64,000 nucleotides of DNA from Escherichia coli (GTDB lineage Bacteria > Pseudomonadota > Gammaproteobacteria > Enterobacterales > Enterobacteriaceae). Location: NCBI RefSeq assembly GCF_013122565.1, contig NZ_CP053258.1, one strand, 5' to 3'. The notes beneath the pieces were generated by a model. It saw only the letters and a program-made list of their open reading frames with translations. It was not told where the DNA came from and did no database searches. Position numbers and translations under genes: made by a program. Below are positions 25,551 to 40,665 of this stretch, one piece after another. The stretch's first letter is position 1, and each line of letters begins with the position of its first letter.

Positions 25551-28016
<2,466 letters not shown>

Positions 28017-28132: not shown

Positions 28133-29650
28133 ATGGAAAGAATAATGCAAAACAGAAAATGGATTTTGACCTCGCTGGTAATGACTTTTTTCGGCATCCC
28201 CATACTGACGCAATTTTTGGCAGCGGTTGTTGCTATGCTGGGGGGCGGGCTTGCCGCTATTCTTGAGGTTTGCAATTTACTCTTTACGCCAGCAATTTAT
28301 CTTCTACTCAACGTCTTTATGCTGACTCTGGGGGCGATAATAATATTTTTCTCTGGTCGCGTGTGGGCGGGCGATAGTGCACCAGAAAAAAAAGAAATAG
28401 CCGTCTGGCGACAATGTCTTTTTTTAGTACCTGCTTTATTCACCCTGGTTGGCTGGATAATCACGCTACATCTGGCAGATTATCAATTTCGCCAGATGGG
28501 AGACGGTTGGTTGGCAAACCTTATGCTTCCCTGGTTGGGCGTTTTTTTAGTCTCATTAGTGGGTGGTGAGTACTGGTGGATAGTCATTATACCCGTTGGC
28601 GCGCATATCAGTTTTTCGCTGGGGTACGGTTGGCCGACCAGACATCTTTTAACGGGCACGTCCGGGTTACGTTGCCGTAATTCCCTCTTGTTTATCCTTC
28701 TCATGCTTGGTTTTGTCGCCGGTTACCAGGCTTATTTATATAAACAGCTTAATCCCGGCGTCGGTGTGCGTGAAAATATTGATACCTGGGCCTGGCGACC
28801 CGATAAACTCAATAATCAACTGACACCACTGCGTGGTAAACCGCAAATTCAGTTCACGCAAAACTGGCCGCGACTCGATGGTGCTACGGCGGCGTACCCA
28901 ATTTATGCCTCTGCATTTTATGCTTTAAGCGTTATACCGGAAGATTTTCACGCCAGGAAATATCTGGAGAACTCTCGTACCCCCGATGCGTATAACAGGA
29001 TTGTTAAAGGTGATGCCGATATTATTTTTGTGGCGCAGCCCTCCGGTGGGCAGAAAAAACGCGCTGAGGAATCGGGCGTCACTTTGCTGTACACGCCTTT
29101 TGCCCGTGAAGCGTTTGTTTTCATCGTCAATGCAGATAACCCGGTTAATTCCCTGACCGAACAACAAGTGCGTGACATCTTCAGTGGCGCAATTACCAAC
29201 TGGCGCACGGTTGGCGGTAACGATCAGGAGATCCAGACCTGGCAACGCCCGGAAGACTCAGGTAGCCAGACGGTGATGCAGGCGCAGGTCATGAAAAATG
29301 TACGTATGATCTCGCCGCAGGAGACCGAAGTGGCTGAAATGATGGGAGGGATGATTAAAGTTGTTGCCGAATACCGTAATACAAACAACTCAATAGGCTA
29401 CACCTTCCGCTATTACGCAACGCAAATGAATACCGATAAGAATATCAAATTGTTAGCGATTAACGGTATTGCACCGACTGCGGAAAACATCCGTAACGGC
29501 AAATATCCCTATATCGTCGATGCCTTTATGGTAACGCGGGAAAATATGACGTCAGAAACGCAAAAACTGGTGGAATGGTTTTTAACGCCGCAGGGGCAAA
29601 GCCTGGTGGAAGATGTGGGTTATGTGCCGATGTATCCAACAATGAAATAA
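28133..29650 (+). CDS. membrane-embedded protein with C-terminal PstS-like periplasmic binding domain
   Basis: 505 aa. N-terminal ~200 aa contains about 5-6 hydrophobic helices; C-terminal ~290 aa resembles PstS-family binding proteins (GATAAYPIYASAFY, WQRPEDSGSQTVMQ, VGYVPMYP). Start could be 28145. Confidence 0.55.
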   Translation: MERIMQNRKWILTSLVMTFFGIPILTQFLAAVVAMLGGGLAAILEVCNLLFTPAIYLLLNVFMLTLGAIIIFFSGRVWAGDSAPEKKEIAVWRQCLFLVPALFTLVGWIITLHLADYQFRQMGDGWLANLMLPWLGVFLVSLVGGEYWWIVIIPVGAHISFSLGYGWPTRHLLTGTSGLRCRNSLLFILLMLGFVAGYQAYLYKQLNPGVGVRENIDTWAWRPDKLNNQLTPLRGKPQIQFTQNWPRLDGATAAYPIYASAFYALSVIPEDFHARKYLENSRTPDAYNRIVKGDADIIFVAQPSGGQKKRAEESGVTLLYTPFAREAFVFIVNADNPVNSLTEQQVRDIFSGAITNWRTVGGNDQEIQTWQRPEDSGSQTVMQAQVMKNVRMISPQETEVAEMMGGMIKVVAEYRNTNNSIGYTFRYYATQMNTDKNIKLLAINGIAPTAENIRNGKYPYIVDAFMVTRENMTSETQKLVEWFLTPQGQSLVEDVGYVPMYPTMK

Positions 29651-29675
29651 CCCTTGAGAGAAGGGAATCAGGGCG

Positions 29676-30677
29676 ATGAATAAATTCACAGAAGTTTTAC
29701 TGCTAGGTGCGGTATTACTGGCGGGATACGCCGACCGGGAAGCATACTATAACAGCGTCAGGGAAGAAGAGAGTCATGGACTGACTTCTCTGCGGGGACA
29801 GCCTGAATTACGTTACAGCGAAGATTGGTCAAGATGGCCCAGAGTGTACGGCGCTACCGCCTTATACCCCCTGTATGCTTCTGCATATTATGAATTAGTA
29901 CCGGAGCCGAAAGATGCGGATCAAACCTCACTGGCCTGGCAGGCGTATGGTCTGCAGCAAACCCGAACAGCTGAAGCCTACGATAATCTGATTAAAGGTA
30001 CTGCGACTGTTATTTTTGTCGCGCAACCTTCTGAAGGGCAGAAAAAACGTGCAGAAGAAGCGGGAGTTAAGCTGAAATATACCGCGTTTGCCCGCGAAGC
30101 CTTTGTCTTTATCGTTGATATCAAAAACCCGGTGAATTCACTCAGCGAACAGCAGGTCAAAGACATTTTTAGCGGTAAAGTGAGTCGCTGGAATAAAGTC
30201 GGTGGCAGCGACGAACGCATAAAAGTGTGGCAGCGCCCGGAAGATTCCGGTAGCCAGACGGTAATGCAAGAGTTAGTTATGCAAGGCACACCGATGTTAC
30301 CCGCTAAAAAATCAACCATGGTTGATCTTATGGGTGGGTTAATTACCGAAGTCGCCGACTATCAAAACACGCCATCTTCAATCGGTTATACCTTTTATTA
30401 TTATGTTACGCGTATGAATAGTAATATGCTCAAAATGCGCAAGCAGATCAAATTATTAGCCATCAACGGCGTCGCCCCCACTGAGGAAAATATTCGCAAC
30501 GGATCTTATCCCTATATTGTGGACGCCTATATGGTGACCCGTGAAAATCCAGCACCGGAAACGCAAAAGTTTGTCGACTGTTTTTTAAGCCCGCAGGGGC
30601 AACAGTTGGTGCAGGATGTGGGGTATGTGCCTTTATACCCGATTACGAACTCTCGTAAAAAGGATTTTGAAAAATGA
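29676..30677 (+). CDS. secreted PstS-like periplasmic binding-domain protein, paralog of the preceding gene
   Basis: 333 aa with N-terminal signal peptide; shares GATALYPLYASAYY, WQRPEDSGSQTVMQ and VGYVPLYP with the upstream gene. Confidence 0.55.
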   Translation: MNKFTEVLLLGAVLLAGYADREAYYNSVREEESHGLTSLRGQPELRYSEDWSRWPRVYGATALYPLYASAYYELVPEPKDADQTSLAWQAYGLQQTRTAEAYDNLIKGTATVIFVAQPSEGQKKRAEEAGVKLKYTAFAREAFVFIVDIKNPVNSLSEQQVKDIFSGKVSRWNKVGGSDERIKVWQRPEDSGSQTVMQELVMQGTPMLPAKKSTMVDLMGGLITEVADYQNTPSSIGYTFYYYVTRMNSNMLKMRKQIKLLAINGVAPTEENIRNGSYPYIVDAYMVTRENPAPETQKFVDCFLSPQGQQLVQDVGYVPLYPITNSRKKDFEK

Positions 30678-30952
30678 AAATATCAATAAGTAAACTTAGT
30701 GAATTTAAAAAGGTTTCTTTATTATTTCTGGCCTACTCATTATTTATTACTGCTGGGTGTGTCAGTCATCAGAATGTTACTGAAAGTATAAAAGAAAAAC
30801 AGAGTTATAATATTACAAGGATACAGGGGAAACCCGTATTACAAATTCCCGAAAAGGAAGCAACGTGGTTGACCGTGGCGAGGGCCACTACGTTATATCC
30901 ATTGTACTCTTCGGCATATCACATGGTTATAGTTGAACCCAGTGGACACTGA
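30674..30952 (+). pseudogene. truncated third PstS-like paralog with lipoprotein signal peptide
   Basis: 92 aa; lipobox ITAGC, then only the first ~45 aa of the binding domain (IQGKPVLQIPE...ATTLYPLYSSAYH) before a stop; ATGA overlap with the upstream gene; very AT-rich DNA follows. Confidence 0.5.
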
Positions 30953-31027
30953 TTCTGATAATATAGAAAAATCAATGATTAACGTCTCTGTTAATATGGG
31001 TATTACTCAGTAAAGGTAAGAAAAATT

Positions 31028-31219
31028 ATGCTGAAACGATTATTTTTTATTATTCTTATTTTATCCGCAACGGGATGTTCTATTGTTGACACCTCTCTGG
31101 AGAAAAAAGACTTACTTAATTTATCTGTATATGAAAATAATATTGTTGATAATTCAGTGTTAATAAGAGTTGTAGCCAGTCAAAAGGTAAAAGAGACCTG
31201 GTATATATGCAACGAATAA
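31028..31219 (+). CDS. small putative lipoprotein (hypothetical)
   Basis: 63 aa; signal peptide with lipobox LSATGC; in the AT-rich block. Confidence 0.35.
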   Translation: MLKRLFFIILILSATGCSIVDTSLEKKDLLNLSVYENNIVDNSVLIRVVASQKVKETWYICNE

Positions 31220-31671
31220 TAGAAAAAGCTTTAACGGTTTTGCTTATGATTTACGCCGGATCAGCAGCTGCCGAAGGTAAAGTGAACGATTTATGCCACA
31301 TAGGTGATCGTGTAGATAAACTTGAGATTACAAATTATCCTCATGATTACGAGTCGCTAGTTGCAGTTGATGAGAAGCGATTGAATGAAATTTATAAATA
31401 CAAGGTTGAAATTACCTATCTTGATAATAAAGAAAGTAAAAAAATTGTTGAACTATTACAAATGGATTATGCGGAACAAGAAGAAAATGTTACTGATGTG
31501 AGGTGGCGGGTGAATATCACTTCATATGGAAATAAAAAATGTGATATCTATTTTGATGGTTTTGGCTTATGTGGAAAAATTAATGGTGAGAATGTCTGTT
31601 TCAGGCATAACGAAATGATACGGTGGATTGAGTCTCATATTTCTGTATTTCTACATAGTGTTAACGAATGA
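31207..31671 (+). CDS. small secreted hypothetical protein
   Basis: 154 aa; signal peptide ending AGSAAAEG; AT-rich codon usage. Confidence 0.4.
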   Translation: MQRIIEKALTVLLMIYAGSAAAEGKVNDLCHIGDRVDKLEITNYPHDYESLVAVDEKRLNEIYKYKVEITYLDNKESKKIVELLQMDYAEQEENVTDVRWRVNITSYGNKKCDIYFDGFGLCGKINGENVCFRHNEMIRWIESHISVFLHSVNE

Positions 31672-31690
31672 ATGTGAAAAAGGAATTTAT

Positions 31691-32143
31691 ATGCAATTTT
31701 TATTTAAAAATAATAAATTATTTTTTATAAGGATAAGGTTAGTTTCGGTTATTTTATTTTTATTTATGAGTACTTCCTTGTATGCTAAAAATCCATGTGA
31801 AGGACTTAAAGGTGATTTACCTGCGGCGCAGTTAATTCCACTTAAGAAAAATATTGCCAGGCAGTTGAATTCTGAAATGGAACAGGTAGTAGAAGTTAAT
31901 AAAGTTGAAATATTATCTTTCGATACCTTGCAGGAATGGTCAATTGTTGGTGTCGCTACCGGAGTATCAGATGATGCATTGTTAATTTATAAAGGGAATA
32001 TCACTAAAACTGATTATGTGGCATTATTTGGAGGCGCTGCAAGTATTAACGATGACATGATCCAATGGATAAACCAGAAAGCGCCGGGAATTCCAGATAA
32101 GTTGGCACAATGTTTTGCGTGGGGAGCTGTATATCGTGATTGA
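31691..32143 (+). CDS. small secreted hypothetical protein
   Basis: 150 aa from MQFLFKNNK with aagga Shine-Dalgarno 8 nt upstream; signal peptide ending LYAKNP. Confidence 0.4.
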   Translation: MQFLFKNNKLFFIRIRLVSVILFLFMSTSLYAKNPCEGLKGDLPAAQLIPLKKNIARQLNSEMEQVVEVNKVEILSFDTLQEWSIVGVATGVSDDALLIYKGNITKTDYVALFGGAASINDDMIQWINQKAPGIPDKLAQCFAWGAVYRD

Positions 32144-32161: not shown

Positions 32162-32869
32162 ATGGAATTAGTTGATACGTTATTTGCAAGCCTCGCCGGT
32201 ACTGATCCTTTCACAGGCGTGGATATTACGATTGCCAAATGCGAATCGGCATATTGGGCCGAGGGCATTGTTCAGCTGCTCATTAACCAGGCCCTGGATG
32301 AAGGGGAAAAGTTCGTCGGTGCTGCCGGTCTTGAGGGATTGCTTCGATATGATGTCACATTAAATATTGGCTTAACGTCCAGCAATGTATGGCCGGGGTT
32401 TTCCCTCGATACCGCCACCATTGGCCGTCTTTGTGCCTGTGGTGCTGACTTTGGATTTGACCCTTATATCAGTGATGTACCAGATGTTCAATGTGACCTG
32501 AACACGACAAATGACTTCACCGTTCAATTTACGGCGATGCTCAACCCGGAGCGGGCGATCATAGCAAAGCGCCCGCTTAAAAAATGTGACTCCTGGATTG
32601 AGGATGTCTATATCTTTCAGGTCTTTAAAGAAGCCTGGAAGTTTCATAACGATAACAGCTTACGAGGATTTCGCGATAAGCAGGCTGAACTGAAACTCTA
32701 CGCGCGTCATTACTCAGTGGAAAATTGTATAGAGGAAAGCTGCCGTGACTGTAATAGTTGTATTCGGCCCAGCTTTTCCCTTTCTCGTAGTGCCATTATT
32801 CGCCTGAACGCGGCGAATGCTCGTTTTGTTTATCAACCGTTTACACGCGACCAGCGGGCGAGGGGGTAA
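32162..32869 (+). CDS. hypothetical protein, Cys-rich C-terminal part
   Basis: 235-aa ORF with no recognisable family; stop lies 2 nt before the next start. Confidence 0.4.
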   Translation: MELVDTLFASLAGTDPFTGVDITIAKCESAYWAEGIVQLLINQALDEGEKFVGAAGLEGLLRYDVTLNIGLTSSNVWPGFSLDTATIGRLCACGADFGFDPYISDVPDVQCDLNTTNDFTVQFTAMLNPERAIIAKRPLKKCDSWIEDVYIFQVFKEAWKFHNDNSLRGFRDKQAELKLYARHYSVENCIEESCRDCNSCIRPSFSLSRSAIIRLNAANARFVYQPFTRDQRARG

Positions 32870-32871
32870 TT

Positions 32872-33660
32872 ATGCAACCCAGTCCCGCCATGCAGAATAT
32901 TATTGCCCATGCCTGGGCGATATTTCATTTTTATCCTGCACCGCAACAGTTCAATATTTGCGTTCCTTGCTGTGTCAGCGAAGAGGTCGCGCAGGCGTTA
33001 CGGCAAACACCGTTACGTCAATTAACCGTTGAAATGATATATGAATGGAACAGTAGCGCGAGGCCTTTTGAACAACAGAATGATGAAATCCGTTACCTCC
33101 TTCCGAGACTGCTGGAATTACTGGCTCACGGTCATTGTCCTGCCATAAATGAAGAGTTATGCCTGAAACGTATTGGCGCTATTTCCCTGGACACCTGGCA
33201 GCCGGAGGAGCGTGATGTACTTACCGATTTTTCCCGCCAGTATATTCGCGATTTATTACTTACCCCGACATTGACCGATCTTGAATCTGCCCTCGTGATG
33301 TTTCATTTTGCCGGACTATCTATAACGGCTTTATTAGATGAGGCGCTGAACACGCCTGGCTATTGGGCTATCGCTTCGCTGGCCTATTTTTTGTATATCA
33401 AGCGTCCAAACGGCGAATTACGTAACGCGTTTATCTCACGCAAGCCGGATGGTGAAGTGATAACGCAGCAAATTAACGCCTGGATTGCGCAATCATGTCA
33501 CGCGCTGGCAGAACGCGCCGCGGCGGCGATTGAATGCTCGCCATCCCTTCCCGGCGGTGGACACACGGAGTACAGTGTTGACCTGAGCTACCTGATTGAC
33601 GAAAGCCTTTGTGCGCTTGTTGATTATCAATTGCTCTGGACGATGGACCGTAATGAATAA
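32872..33660 (+). CDS. hypothetical protein, paralog A of a tandem pair
   Basis: 262 aa beginning MQPSPAMQ; shares N-terminal Cys motif, NDEIRYLLPRL and other blocks with the next gene. Confidence 0.45.
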   Translation: MQPSPAMQNIIAHAWAIFHFYPAPQQFNICVPCCVSEEVAQALRQTPLRQLTVEMIYEWNSSARPFEQQNDEIRYLLPRLLELLAHGHCPAINEELCLKRIGAISLDTWQPEERDVLTDFSRQYIRDLLLTPTLTDLESALVMFHFAGLSITALLDEALNTPGYWAIASLAYFLYIKRPNGELRNAFISRKPDGEVITQQINAWIAQSCHALAERAAAAIECSPSLPGGGHTEYSVDLSYLIDESLCALVDYQLLWTMDRNE

Positions 33661-33671
33661 GGAGATTCACA

Positions 33672-34448
33672 ATGCAACCCAGCCCCGCCATGCAGGCATT
33701 AATTGAGCAGATTTATCATATTTTTCGTCGTTATCCGGTGCCGTCGAGATTTCATGTTTGTTGTCCTTACTGCTTTAGCGAAGAACAACAACAAGCCTTA
33801 AAAGGGGTTTCACTGCGTGCCATACCTTTCCCTTTATTACATGCCTGGGGAACAAGTATTGGCCCTAACCCACAAAATGATAATGAGATTCGCTATTTAT
33901 TACCCAGATTGTTTGACTTTATTGCCCAAAGGCAATTTCCAGGCATTTATGAAGGCTGCTGTTTACAGAGAATAGCAGAAGCAGATAACCAGAACTGGCG
34001 AGCGGATGAACTACAAATAATTAGCGATTTCGCCTATTTATATATGCAGGATTGGGTGTCGGTTAAGGAAGTTGTGGAGCTGGAAATAATATTAGAAATG
34101 TTTTATCGCGGTGGTATAAAGATTGAACCCTTACTTGACGCTATTATGTCCATTTCCGGTTACTGGCCGACGGCGTCAATGGCATGTTTGCTCTGGCGTA
34201 ACAGTAAAGAATACGTCGAAAATAGCGAGTTTGAGCAGAGTGATGATGATAAAACCATTACCACCCAAATCAATACCTGGGCTAGAAATAATCATCCTTT
34301 GCTGAAAGAACGCGCGCGGCAAGCGATTGAGAACCCGCTAAAACAGCCCGAACAGGGCACACGATATCAGGTCTGGGAAGACGACTGGATGATTGATGAG
34401 TGTTTGTGCGCAATGTATGACGCATCATCCGAATCATCAGGACAATAA
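33672..34448 (+). CDS. hypothetical protein, paralog B of a tandem pair
   Basis: 258 aa beginning MQPSPAMQ; paralogous to 32872..33660. Confidence 0.45.
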   Translation: MQPSPAMQALIEQIYHIFRRYPVPSRFHVCCPYCFSEEQQQALKGVSLRAIPFPLLHAWGTSIGPNPQNDNEIRYLLPRLFDFIAQRQFPGIYEGCCLQRIAEADNQNWRADELQIISDFAYLYMQDWVSVKEVVELEIILEMFYRGGIKIEPLLDAIMSISGYWPTASMACLLWRNSKEYVENSEFEQSDDDKTITTQINTWARNNHPLLKERARQAIENPLKQPEQGTRYQVWEDDWMIDECLCAMYDASSESSGQ

Positions 34449-34450
34449 AG

Positions 34451-34633
34451 ATGAATAAAATCAAACTTTATATTCCTCCGCTATTTCTCGGCTTTGTTAT
34501 TGTGCCGCTGTTGGTGTGGCCGACGGTGGTTGCGCTGGCGGCTTTTGGTATCACGCTGAGTTTTCTGGGGGAGTTACTGTTCTTAATCCCGATCATAGTC
34601 CGACGTATGTCACTTCTGGAAGCACAACTTTGA
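34451..34633 (+). CDS. small hydrophobic membrane protein, possibly the N-terminal part of a stop-interrupted gene
   Basis: 60 aa with two predicted transmembrane helices; same reading frame as the following ORF, separated by a single TGA. Confidence 0.3.
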   Translation: MNKIKLYIPPLFLGFVIVPLLVWPTVVALAAFGITLSFLGELLFLIPIIVRRMSLLEAQL

Positions 34634-34666
34634 TTATCGGCTGAATATACGCTTGTTTTCTGTGCA

Positions 34667-35050
34667 ATGGTGGGCGTTGGTTGGCAATTCTCTCGCAGAA
34701 CGTCACCTGAATTAAAAAACAGACTGCATTTTTGGCTGGTCTTTACACCGGTTTATTTCTGGTTGCTTCTGTGGAATATCATTTTCTATATCGGGCCAGC
34801 GAAAAATGCATTGCTGGAAAATATCCGCAATTTCTTTTTAACAATTGTCTGGTTACCGCTGAATTTTTCGCCACTTTGGTCCCAACCGTGGACTGACTTT
34901 GTCGGTCCAATAAGCGCACAGCTTGGTTTTGCGTTGGGATATTATTGCCAGTGGCGTAGCAAAAATAGAAGCCAGGGGCAGAAGTGGGGTGAGTGGGGAA
35001 CGTGTCTTAGTTTTGTTACGTTGGGTATGATGGCATGGGTTTTGCGGTAA
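34667..35050 (+). CDS. hydrophobic membrane protein, possibly the C-terminal part of a stop-interrupted gene
   Basis: 127 aa with predicted transmembrane helices; in frame with 34451..34633. Confidence 0.3.
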   Translation: MVGVGWQFSRRTSPELKNRLHFWLVFTPVYFWLLLWNIIFYIGPAKNALLENIRNFFLTIVWLPLNFSPLWSQPWTDFVGPISAQLGFALGYYCQWRSKNRSQGQKWGEWGTCLSFVTLGMMAWVLR

Positions 35051-35100
35051 TTTCCTGAATCAAAAAGCAGGCCAGATTGTTGACGAAGTGCGCTTTGTTC

Positions 35101-35199
35101 ATGCCGGATGCGGCGTGAACGCCTTATTCGGCCTACAAAATCATGCAAATTCAATATATTGCATAAACCACGTAGGCTTGATAAGCGTAGCGCATCAGG
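35101..35199. repeat. BIME: two inverted REP units
   Basis: gccggatgcggcgtgaacgccttattcggcctac and gtaggcttgataagcgtagcgcatcagg in inverted orientation. Confidence 0.7.
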
Positions 35200-35263: not shown

Positions 35264-36769
35264 TTACGACGCCAGCGACAACTTCTGCTGCGTATACTCC
35301 ACCAGCCACTGACTCACACGAGATTGTTGATCCGCATTCAGCCACATGCCTTGTTTTGTGCGACGCCACAGGGCATCGTCGGCGCGGCGGACCCATTCGT
35401 GATCCACCAGGTATTTCAGCTCCGCTTCGTAGAACTCATGACCGAAATCCTCCCCGAGGTCGCTTATCGCCCCTGCATTGCCGAGCAGCAGTTCGCTGTT
35501 GCTGCCGTAAGTGCGCGCGTAGTGACGTGCCAGCGATTCAGTCAGGAATGGATAGCGACGGCGCAGACGAGCGGCATAATCGTCGCGGTCACCTTCAATG
35601 GCACCACCCGGCAGCACGCTCTCTTTCGTCCACGCCGGGCCAATACCCTGATAATACGGCGTCAGTTTTTCCAGCGCATGTTCCGCCAGTTTGCGGTAGG
35701 TGGTCAGCTTACCGCCGAATACCGACAGCAGCGGTGCTTTGCCGTTTTCATCATGGATATCAAGGGTGTAATCACGGGTAATAGCCTGCGGCGAGTCGGA
35801 CTCATCATCACACAGCGGACGCACACCGGAGTAGGTCCAGACGATATCATCACGGCTTAGCTGCTTTTTAAAGTGCGTGTTATACACTTTCAGCAGGTAA
35901 TTGATTTCACTCTCTTCAATCTTCACTGCTTTCGGATCACCTTTGTATTCCACATCGGTGGTGCCGATGATTGAAAACTCGTCCATCCACGGGATCACGA
36001 ACACAATACGTTTATCTTCGTTTTGCAGAATGTAGGCTTGCTTCTGGGTATGCACGCGTGGTACCACAATATGGCTGCCTTTGATCAGGCGAATGCCATA
36101 AGGTGAGGGCAGATGCATCCCGTCGTCGAAGAACTGTTTCACCCACGGGCCGGTGGCGTTAACCAGGCCGCGCGCTTGCCAGCTATATTTTTTGCCGGTA
36201 TCGATATCTTCCGCTTCCACAATCCACAGGCCGTTTTCGCGGCGAGCAGAGGTGGCGCGAGTCCGAGTAAGCACTTCGCCGCCTTTACGCACCACCATCT
36301 GGGCGTTGGCGAGTACCAGACGGGCGTCGTCTACCCAACAGTCAGAATATTCGAATCCGCGCTTAATTTCCGGTTTTAACACTGAGTTTGCGCCAAAACG
36401 CAAACCGGTTGATCCCGGCAGGCTGGTGCGTTTACCCAGATGATCGTACATAAACAGACCAATGCGAATCATCCACGCCGGGCGCAGATGCGGACGATGC
36501 GGCAGGCGAAAACGCATCGGGAAGGCGATATGAGGGGCCATTTTCAGTAGCACTTCACGTTCAGCCAGCGCCTCGCTGACCAGGCGGAATTCATAGTGCT
36601 CAAGGTAGCGCAGGCCACCGTGAATGAGTTTTGAACTGGCGGAAGAGGTCGCACAAGCGAGATCCTGCGCCTCCAGCATCAGCACGGATAAACCGCGTCC
36701 AGCGGCGTCTGCCGCGATACCAGCACCATTGATGCCGCCCCCTATCACAATCAGATCTTTGGTTTCCAT
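35264..36769 (-). CDS. glpD: aerobic glycerol-3-phosphate dehydrogenase
   Basis: 501 aa from METKDLIVIGGGINGAG (FAD-binding Rossmann motif). Confidence 0.93.
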   Translation of the reverse strand: METKDLIVIGGGINGAGIAADAAGRGLSVLMLEAQDLACATSSASSKLIHGGLRYLEHYEFRLVSEALAEREVLLKMAPHIAFPMRFRLPHRPHLRPAWMIRIGLFMYDHLGKRTSLPGSTGLRFGANSVLKPEIKRGFEYSDCWVDDARLVLANAQMVVRKGGEVLTRTRATSARRENGLWIVEAEDIDTGKKYSWQARGLVNATGPWVKQFFDDGMHLPSPYGIRLIKGSHIVVPRVHTQKQAYILQNEDKRIVFVIPWMDEFSIIGTTDVEYKGDPKAVKIEESEINYLLKVYNTHFKKQLSRDDIVWTYSGVRPLCDDESDSPQAITRDYTLDIHDENGKAPLLSVFGGKLTTYRKLAEHALEKLTPYYQGIGPAWTKESVLPGGAIEGDRDDYAARLRRRYPFLTESLARHYARTYGSNSELLLGNAGAISDLGEDFGHEFYEAELKYLVDHEWVRRADDALWRRTKQGMWLNADQQSRVSQWLVEYTQQKLSLAS

Positions 36770-36880
36770 GCTGCCCTCATTCACTTTCGTTAAAGCTCAT
36801 AAATGTTCGTTATCGAACATATTAGCAAAGAATCGCGCTTTAGGTAACATTGAAAAAACATTTTAGAGTGATATGTATAA

Positions 36881-40649: not shown

Positions 40650-40665
40650 TGGCACGACGGTTGCA
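40650..40665 (+). promoter_or_regulatory. sigma-54 (-24/-12) promoter of rtcBA
   Basis: TGGCACgacggTTGCA is an exact match to TGGCAC-N5-TTGCA, about 40 nt upstream of rtcB. Confidence 0.8.

Follow-up and report, generated by a model that had tools for sequence, protein, structure and literature searches.

What is a row of three closely packed genes, none of which can be assigned to a named protein family, doing in a strain-variable island between glgP and glpD of Escherichia coli? The genes were found in a stretch of 64,000 nucleotides (nt) from contig NZ_CP053258.1 (assembly GCF_013122565.1), hereafter called the window, in which they occupy the following open reading frames (ORFs; aa, amino acids):

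32162-32869, plus strand: 235-aa ORF, from the ORF list; apparent tandem of two ~100-aa domains of an immunity type (DUF4279-like)
32872-33660, plus strand: 262-aa ORF, clade A paralog; acidic, predicted all-helical, unnamed family
33672-34448, plus strand: 258-aa ORF, clade B paralog of the same unnamed family

The answer put forward here, which rests on sequence comparison and to which we assign a probability of about 0.45, is that the trio could be a toxin-less ('orphan') array whose proteins protect against RNA-cleaving effectors.

A sequence-only reading of this DNA had described a 235-aa ORF that is followed, after gaps of 2 nt and then 11 nt, by two paralogs of ~260 aa, and re-listing of the ORFs returned the same genes and the same spacers (2 nt between the 235-aa and 262-aa genes, 11 nt between the 262-aa and 258-aa genes, all on the plus strand). 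The blocks that it had noticed in both paralogs (i.e. MQPSPAMQ, a Cys motif reading CVPCC or CCPYC, and NDEIRYLLPRL) were also recovered in their BLASTP alignment, in which the paralogs are 38% identical over 252 residues (E 5e-60). Because both paralog genes are conserved in other genomes, the trio is real and far beyond chance. All three products are acidic, with isoelectric points (pI) of 4.95 (235 aa), 4.8 (262 aa) and 4.7 (258 aa); none of the three has a signal peptide, and the proteins are cytoplasmic. Sensitive profile searches placed none of them in a Pfam or NCBIfam family, while linking the halves of the 235-aa protein to 100-aa proteins encoded next to Rhs genes, and the paralogs to a large family without a name.

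Judging from both its sequence and its predicted structure, the 235-aa protein is an internal tandem duplication of a ~100-aa domain, with an N-domain at ~aa 1-108 (32162-32485) and a C-domain at ~aa 109-235 (32486-32866). The two halves match each other with E 2.6e-5 over 79 columns (hhalign), and a single-domain protein of 100 aa (P0223) aligns to the N-half (E 2e-20) as well as to the C-half (E 1e-5) in BLASTP. In the AlphaFold2 model the order beta-beta-alpha-alpha-beta-beta-alpha-beta occurs twice, in a model of which the N-domain alone is confident (predicted local distance difference test score ~85-95) and of which the overall mean score is 59.

The Rhs-linked proteins of 100 aa are matched by the profile of the 235-aa protein with E 1e-17 to 1e-21 (1e-24 to 1e-26 in a local hmmsearch), and these relatives are 37-43% identical to the N-half. 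One of them is encoded 3 nt 3' of a VgrG-linked Rhs gene of 1,351 aa in Citrobacter freundii, and the same 3-nt distance to an Rhs tip is found in E. coli; the Rhs tip weakly matches Ntox33 (PF15533, i-E 0.0015). A Salmonella SPI-19 Rhs-Ntox33 effector has been listed as RNA-targeting, with a DUF4279-domain protein proposed as its likely immunity protein (PMC13304343), and DUF4279 has been classified as the immunity family FdL-Imm5 (PMC9424270). In a Foldseek search the N-domain matched a 'DUF4279 domain-containing protein' of Salmonella salamae (42% identity, E 2.6e-8) and, more weakly, other DUF4279 proteins (E 4e-3 to 0.7). Since both of its halves are homologous to proteins that lie 3 nt after Rhs toxins, the 235-aa protein looks, on this sequence evidence, like a doubled immunity protein and not like a toxin.

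No match to Pfam, PADLOC or PDB sequences was obtained for the 235-aa protein, nor any toxin, secretion or trafficking domain, which agrees with the sequence-only reading, where no known toxin domain had been recognised. Its sole NCBIfam match is to PRK09781, at 24 bits against a cut-off of 373 and covering no more than residues 7-52. This match arises because a chimeric protein of 181 aa (P0270, L149 8001-9130) has a 235-like N-terminus: ~44 residues from the start of a 235-like gene are joined to a YbbD-like body, and the two parent genes (235-like and YbbD_head) are adjacent in the island of a Salmonella-like genome. The PRK09781 or 'YbbD family' assignment was therefore rejected, the true YbbD_head gene being a separate one, and the RefSeq name 'YbbD family protein' on the 236-aa proteins of E. 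coli is probably a mislabel that stems from the chimera. The possibility that the 235-aa ORF is the C-terminal remnant of a larger polymorphic toxin, which the earlier reading had raised, was likewise rejected: the homologs are all of ~262 aa or less and never occur within a larger protein, from which it follows that the ORF is not such a remnant, and the stop-to-stop ORF begins just 4 codons 5' of the ATG.

The two ~260-aa paralogs belong to a much larger group. Although a word-indexed search gave only 9 close relatives, a hidden Markov model search with the alignment of those relatives reached 2,273 cluster representatives at E<=1e-3 and 1,101 at E<=1e-10 (clusters counted at 50% identity). 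No member of this family was matched in Pfam or NCBIfam, the family profile found nothing among PDB sequences, and toxin or defence signatures were absent from the paralogs in Pfam, NCBIfam and PADLOC. The predicted structure is confident and all-helical, with TOG and HEAT domains as the best structural matches in the PDB. Relatives found by Foldseek span many phyla and are nearly all labelled 'uncharacterized'; in the AlphaFold DB some carry the label of a HEAT-repeat or DNA alkylation repair protein, and the best match there for the 262-aa paralog is a protein of Escherichia albertii (94% identity). This paralog carries the motifs CxxCC (C30, C33, C34) and EIRYLLPRL, and family-wide conservation is seen at Y15, F18, C30, C34, E72, L77-P78-R79, E113, L155 and W204, with the N-terminal Cys motif usually reading CxxCC or CxCxxC. 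The family is also strongly acidic, with a median pI of 4.9, a pI <6 in 96% of 139 members and a median net charge of -13.

In a neighbour-joining tree the 262-aa and 258-aa paralogs fall into different clades, A and B, both of them old. The same A-then-B tandem with the same 11-nt spacer recurs in a metagenomic enterobacterial genome, at a different chromosomal site and without a 235-like gene, which means that the pair is old and moves as a unit. Of the 'duplicated, diverging partners' proposed from the sequence, the paralogy thus stands, while a recent local duplication is ruled out by the tree and by this second A-B pair.

To see the company that the helical family keeps, loci were collected by 12 exact-protein look-ups and by scanning metagenomes for a degenerate DNA pattern of K(Y/H)FLPRxLEL (120 loci, nearly all true members of the family), and the sample was reduced to 92 non-redundant clusters at 80% identity. 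RNA-repair genes are neighbours in 9 of the 87 clusters with an informative neighbour, and in 8 of the 45 with a tightly linked neighbour on the same strand, a frequency that we judge, without a formal background, to be far above chance for such rare operons. In three contigs the helical gene stands between Hen1 and Pnkp, with junctions that overlap or measure 9-12 nt and with both neighbours scoring above their cut-offs (TIGR04074 and TIGR04075, respectively); one locus of this type (L107) also has an RtcB-family gene upstream. In another (L113), a 73-aa gene lies between the helical gene and Pnkp. RtcB directly precedes the helical gene in L099, and in one further locus the helical gene is found between a Band-7 gene and an RtcB fragment. 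RlaP (PF10127, best E 2.9e-62, with the nucleotidyltransferase motif in addition) occurs both before and after it. In Moraxella (L025 5677-11733) RtcR is divergent from a kinase-ligase gene, which is followed by the helical gene and a gene for a metallophosphoesterase-motif protein. The operon there consists of a P-loop kinase fused to a T4 Rnl1-like ligase, the helical protein, the metallophosphoesterase-motif protein (309 aa) and a 301-aa coiled-coil protein, without RtcB, and looks like an RtcR-controlled 5'-phosphate-ligase repair system.

Other neighbours are more scattered. In two related Bacteroidota-like contigs the helical gene is immediately followed by the gene of a canonical DUF4279 fusion protein. 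A jackhmmer search found no DUF4279-type neighbours beyond those of L032 and L146. Ankyrin-repeat genes accompany the family in two unrelated loci, and single neighbours include NUDIX, DUF1810, an Arr-type ADP-ribosyltransferase domain and an R2K ATP-grasp. The Arr neighbour, a rifampin ADP-ribosyltransferase domain protein above the NCBIfam cut-off, lies 11 nt 5' of the helical gene in L128 (4588-6176) and L126 (12789-13930).

How the trio is distributed within E. coli is also informative. The 235-aa gene is present in 2,334 of 5,426 complete E. coli genomes, in 2,278 of which an intact pair of a 236-aa and a 255-aa gene is found; the B-type paralog occurs in 3,318 of the 5,426 and the A-type paralog in a single one. 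Two B-type alleles exist in E. coli (~64% identical at the protein level), the 258-aa protein of the window being 62% identical to the 255-aa protein, whose gene in most E. coli stands after the 236-aa gene. The identity of the 236+255 pair is >=99% in 369 E. coli genomes, 95-99% in 529, 90-95% in 1,332 and 80-90% in 790, compared to a glgP segment of the same length that is >=95% identical in 5,424 of 5,425.

At least 5 gene arrangements exist at the glgP-glpD locus. In K-12 only REP-rich remnants are left, annotated as yzgL. B strains have a gene for a membrane domain fused to a PstS-like domain, a PstS-like gene and a membrane gene, without the 235-aa gene or a helical gene, while O111 and many other E. 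coli have the fusion gene, the 236-aa and 255-aa genes and the membrane gene. In VE-T9 the order is fusion gene, 258-aa gene and membrane gene, and E. coli 2020CK-00188 has the full set of the window together with an ankyrin-repeat gene and a 144-aa gene. The Superficieibacter island contains two 235-like copies, a helicase-like insert of 935 aa, one gene of the helical family and the membrane gene. In a Salmonella-like contig two fusion genes, a 237-aa homolog of the 235-aa protein and a YbbD_head gene are found without any member of the helical family. The coupling of the 235-aa gene to a helical gene is conserved in E. coli and Superficieibacter, yet the partnership of the 235-aa and helical proteins is not obligate, given the A-B pair that stands alone elsewhere and the Salmonella-like 237-aa gene that is followed by YbbD_head. 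Both the YbbD_head and the ankyrin-repeat genes are companion cargo in the islands of other genomes, and ybbD of K-12 overlaps the end of an orphan Rhs fragment (ylbH). The locus therefore has several features of an orphan or poly-immunity island, i.e. toxin-less immunity-type genes, strain-variable content and raised diversity, and the comparison of sequences suggests that it is a hypervariable island of the conflict type. The 935-aa protein of Superficieibacter sp. L013 (3456-6263) carries P-loop helicase motifs, lies between the two 235-like copies and overlaps the end of the first; it may be a defence-type insert.

If the trio is indeed a protective array, each of its proteins would bind and block an incoming RNA-cleaving effector delivered by competitors, such as ribotoxins of the Rhs/type VI secretion system (T6SS), contact-dependent inhibition (CDI) or colicin type, and their negative charge might mimic nucleic acid by analogy with barstar or with the immunity proteins of colicins. 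Paralogs A and B, and likewise the two halves of the 235-aa protein, would then widen the range of toxins covered, and in other bacteria a helical protein within an RNA-repair operon would stop the RNase while Pnkp/Hen1 or RtcB mend the RNA. Neutralisation of ribotoxins is proposed for the helical family because of its strong acidity, the lack of an enzyme motif and its recurrent placement in RNA-repair operons, and an orphan or poly-immunity island is proposed because of the ankyrin and YbbD_head genes, the swapped cargo and the extreme diversity within the species.

Several observations weigh against this protective role. The 235-aa protein has no match to Pfam DUF4279 (PF14106) at E<=10, and among 12 members of its family there is none at E<=0.1, relatives showing only 'weak' or 'faint' precomputed matches; together with the non-significant hhalign score of its profile against the canonical DUF4279 domain (E 0.26), this means that strict membership is not established by sequence. 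At 37-43% identity to the Rhs-linked proteins, cross-protection is uncertain. No Rhs, CDI or other polymorphic toxin gene was seen beside a member of the helical family in the loci examined, and no cognate toxin for this family was found in ~130 loci, so that 'immunity' is deduced from charge, context and company. About 90% of the family members are beside unrelated housekeeping genes. The window island encodes no RNA ligase, kinase, phosphatase or methylase, and control of the island by RtcR and sigma-54 had to be rejected, since the only promoter match lies at rtcB. A repair subunit or scaffold could just as well be what stands, with overlapping codons, between Hen1 and Pnkp, and the membrane and PstS-like genes that frame the trio are left unexplained by a protective array.

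The role in repair is the main rival explanation for the helical family. It holds that the helical paralogs serve RNA repair as accessory subunits (a scaffold, substrate selector or regulator) which in Escherichia work with RtcR-RtcBA, the 235-aa protein being a partner, and we consider it unlikely, even though much of the evidence from gene neighbourhoods could be read in its favour. Not only the insertion between Hen1 and Pnkp but also that between kinase/ligase and phosphoesterase in the RtcR-divergent operon of Moraxella would suit such a subunit, as would the adjacency to RtcB, RlaP and Band-7. A HEAT-like fold is typical of scaffolds, and the island is 2-6 kb from rtcR/rtcB in Escherichia, Superficieibacter and the Salmonella-like genome. 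On the other hand, ~90% of the family members are without a repair gene nearby, strong acidity is unusual for direct RNA binders, and the presence/absence and allele diversity of the genes in E. coli go far beyond those of rtc or glgP. In the window, moreover, rtcBA has a sigma-54 promoter of its own and is located ~6 kb from the island, the glp genes stand between the island and rtc, and the promoter search, for which a perfect sigma-54 consensus (TGGCACGACGGTTGCA) at 40650-40665 upstream of rtcB served as the positive control, gave no match in the island itself. The closeness of the island to the rtc genes may thus be coincidental.

A broader proposal, which combines elements of defence and repair, is that the helical proteins are an unrecognised component of RNA-damage defence, sensing or blocking ribotoxins or mimicking the RNA substrate and co-opted into Pnkp/Hen1, RtcB, Rnl and RlaP operons, with the island, which most E. 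coli possess, as an anti-ribotoxin module tied to Rtc. This is possible, although we regard it as rather doubtful.

The model of the sequence-only reading, in which the 235-aa protein is a toxin and the paralogs are diverged immunity proteins or chaperones, fares considerably worse and is now improbable. Gaps of just 2 nt and 11 nt, and a coupling that has been kept in E. coli and Superficieibacter, are what such a cassette would show, and the B-type gene that directly follows the 235-aa gene in 2,278 of 2,334 genomes, together with the ~740 E. coli genomes in which a B-type gene is preceded by no more than the final ~70 nt of the upstream gene, is as expected of orphan immunity genes. However, both halves of the supposed toxin have homologs that take the immunity position behind Rhs, and the protein is acidic, is not derived from a larger one and has none of the domains of a toxin or of its export. 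A 235-aa homolog without a helical member (in the Salmonella-like genome), the A-B pair alone elsewhere and a helical family far wider than the 235-aa family likewise disagree with it. The link to inter-bacterial conflict that this model proposed is retained, but not the roles that it assigned, since the 235-aa protein resembles an immunity protein and no toxin is present; as to an effector-chaperone cassette, nothing supports it.

Among known systems, the DUF4279 (FdL-Imm5) immunity proteins of Rhs/T6SS loci (PMC13304343, PMC9424270) are, like the 235-aa protein, small, acidic and cytoplasmic and may have a related domain, whereas in the 235-aa protein the domain is doubled within one polypeptide and the island contains no toxin.

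Orphan or poly-immunity gene arrays of polymorphic toxin systems were reportedly described by Zhang, Aravind and co-workers in 2012. Such arrays are likewise toxin-less rows of immunity-type genes that are strain-variable and diverse, with tandem paralogs and fused immunity domains; the array in the window differs in being framed by membrane and PstS-like genes and in that its helical proteins are putative immunity proteins. With HEAT/TOG-type alpha-solenoid proteins the helical family has in common an all-helical, repeat-like fold, as far as its model indicates.

RNA-repair operons (Pnkp/Hen1, RtcR-RtcBA, RlaP, Band-7; PMC12776372, PMC7790460) contain or adjoin relatives of the helical family in at least 9 independent loci, in contrast to the island of the window, where no repair enzyme is encoded and the nearby rtcR/rtcBA form a separate sigma-54 unit. 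The helical family is not named as a component of RNA-repair operons in these two papers, and the curated libraries and searchable literature gave no description of it or of the glgP-glpD variable region, although a prior mention is possible because a key comparative survey was not covered. It appears, then, that orphan immunity arrays and RNA-repair operons were already known, and that the helical family and its link to both contexts are new.

What makes this family worth pursuing is that little is known so far of what sets off bacterial RNA repair (Rtc, Pnkp/Hen1) in nature or of the proteins that assist it, while a large unannotated helical family sits in RNA-repair operons of distant bacteria and, in the form of two alleles that have diverged deeply, in ~60% of the complete E. 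coli genomes. It is an easily testable candidate, either for an inhibitor of RNA-cleaving toxins or for a repair cofactor, and a pair of Escherichia 'hypothetical proteins' that had been mislabelled 'YbbD family' or 'membrane protein' is moved to an immunity-type context. Should the helical proteins prove to be a component of RNA-damage defence, E. coli would offer a genetic handle on the natural insults that RNA repair answers.

The remaining genes of the island and its boundaries are as follows:

25569-28016, plus strand: glgP, left core-genome boundary of the island (ORF list, genome comparison)
28133-29650, plus strand: gene opening the island, 505-aa protein with an N-terminal multi-pass membrane domain and a PstS-like periplasmic binding domain (TIGR02136)
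29676-30677, plus strand: second PstS-like gene, 333 aa, optional island cargo
30674-30952, plus strand: third PstS-like copy, truncated, 92 aa, optional island cargo
31207-31671, plus strand: small predicted secreted protein of 154 aa with a signal-peptide-like N-terminus
31691-32143, plus strand: small predicted secreted protein of ~150 aa (ATG at 31691) with a signal-peptide-like N-terminus
34451-35050, plus strand: disrupted gene for a multi-pass membrane protein of ~200 aa, closing the island (from the sequence); it starts 2 nt after the 258-aa ORF
35264-36784, minus strand: glpD, right core-genome boundary of the island (ORF list, genome comparison)

Beyond glpD follow glpE, glpG, glpR, rtcR and rtcB. 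No Rhs, CDI or VgrG gene is present between glgP and glpD in the window, the DNA of which is ~92% identical to that of the E. coli compared. The genes of the island all share one strand and are separated by very short gaps, and in E. coli, Superficieibacter and the Salmonella-like genome alike the 505-aa gene holds the same position. One might therefore take the trio as part of a single operon, running from the 505-aa gene directly after glgP to the terminal membrane gene, for a membrane or periplasmic process (phosphate or ligand sensing) unrelated to toxins or RNA, with a frame of PstS-like gene, cargo and membrane gene that is conserved across genera; this is hardly likely, however, as the cargo is freely swapped or absent (B strains lack both the 235-aa and the helical genes), both the A-B pair and the helical family at large are found in other places without a PstS-like gene, the wide independent distribution of the family is not explained, and the trio is cytoplasmic while the PstS-like domains are periplasmic.

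With 120 bits against TIGR02136, the 505-aa protein is under the cut-off of 206.6, as are all three PstS-like genes (28133-30952). The 505-aa gene is as hypervariable in E. coli as the cargo (80-100% identity, versus >=95% for glgP). Its 333-aa neighbour encodes a Tyr (LLAGY) where the E. coli ortholog has the lipobox Cys (LLAGC), a difference from which one may suppose that this copy has lost its lipid anchoring or is decaying. Positions 30001-32143 form a low-GC segment (36.8% G+C, compared to ~50% around it); the two small proteins encoded there, which are predicted to be secreted and for which Pfam, NCBIfam and related searches gave no family match, may be periplasmic immunity-type cargo. 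The terminal membrane gene has an in-frame stop near 34632, after which the frame resumes as a 127-aa ORF (34667-35050), while in E. coli genomes it is intact at 199-204 aa; its product resembles the N-terminal membrane part of the 505-aa protein.

A plasmid or phage origin of the island was considered and discarded, there being no plasmid matches except for one mislabelled chromosome. Non-coding RNA searches (Rfam) of the island returned only REP-derived matches near glpD, at 35097-35179 between the island and that gene, where ES036 is above its gathering score and naRNA4 below. The 'yzgL' ORF of K-12 maps to the REP region near glpD as well and looks like translated repeats.

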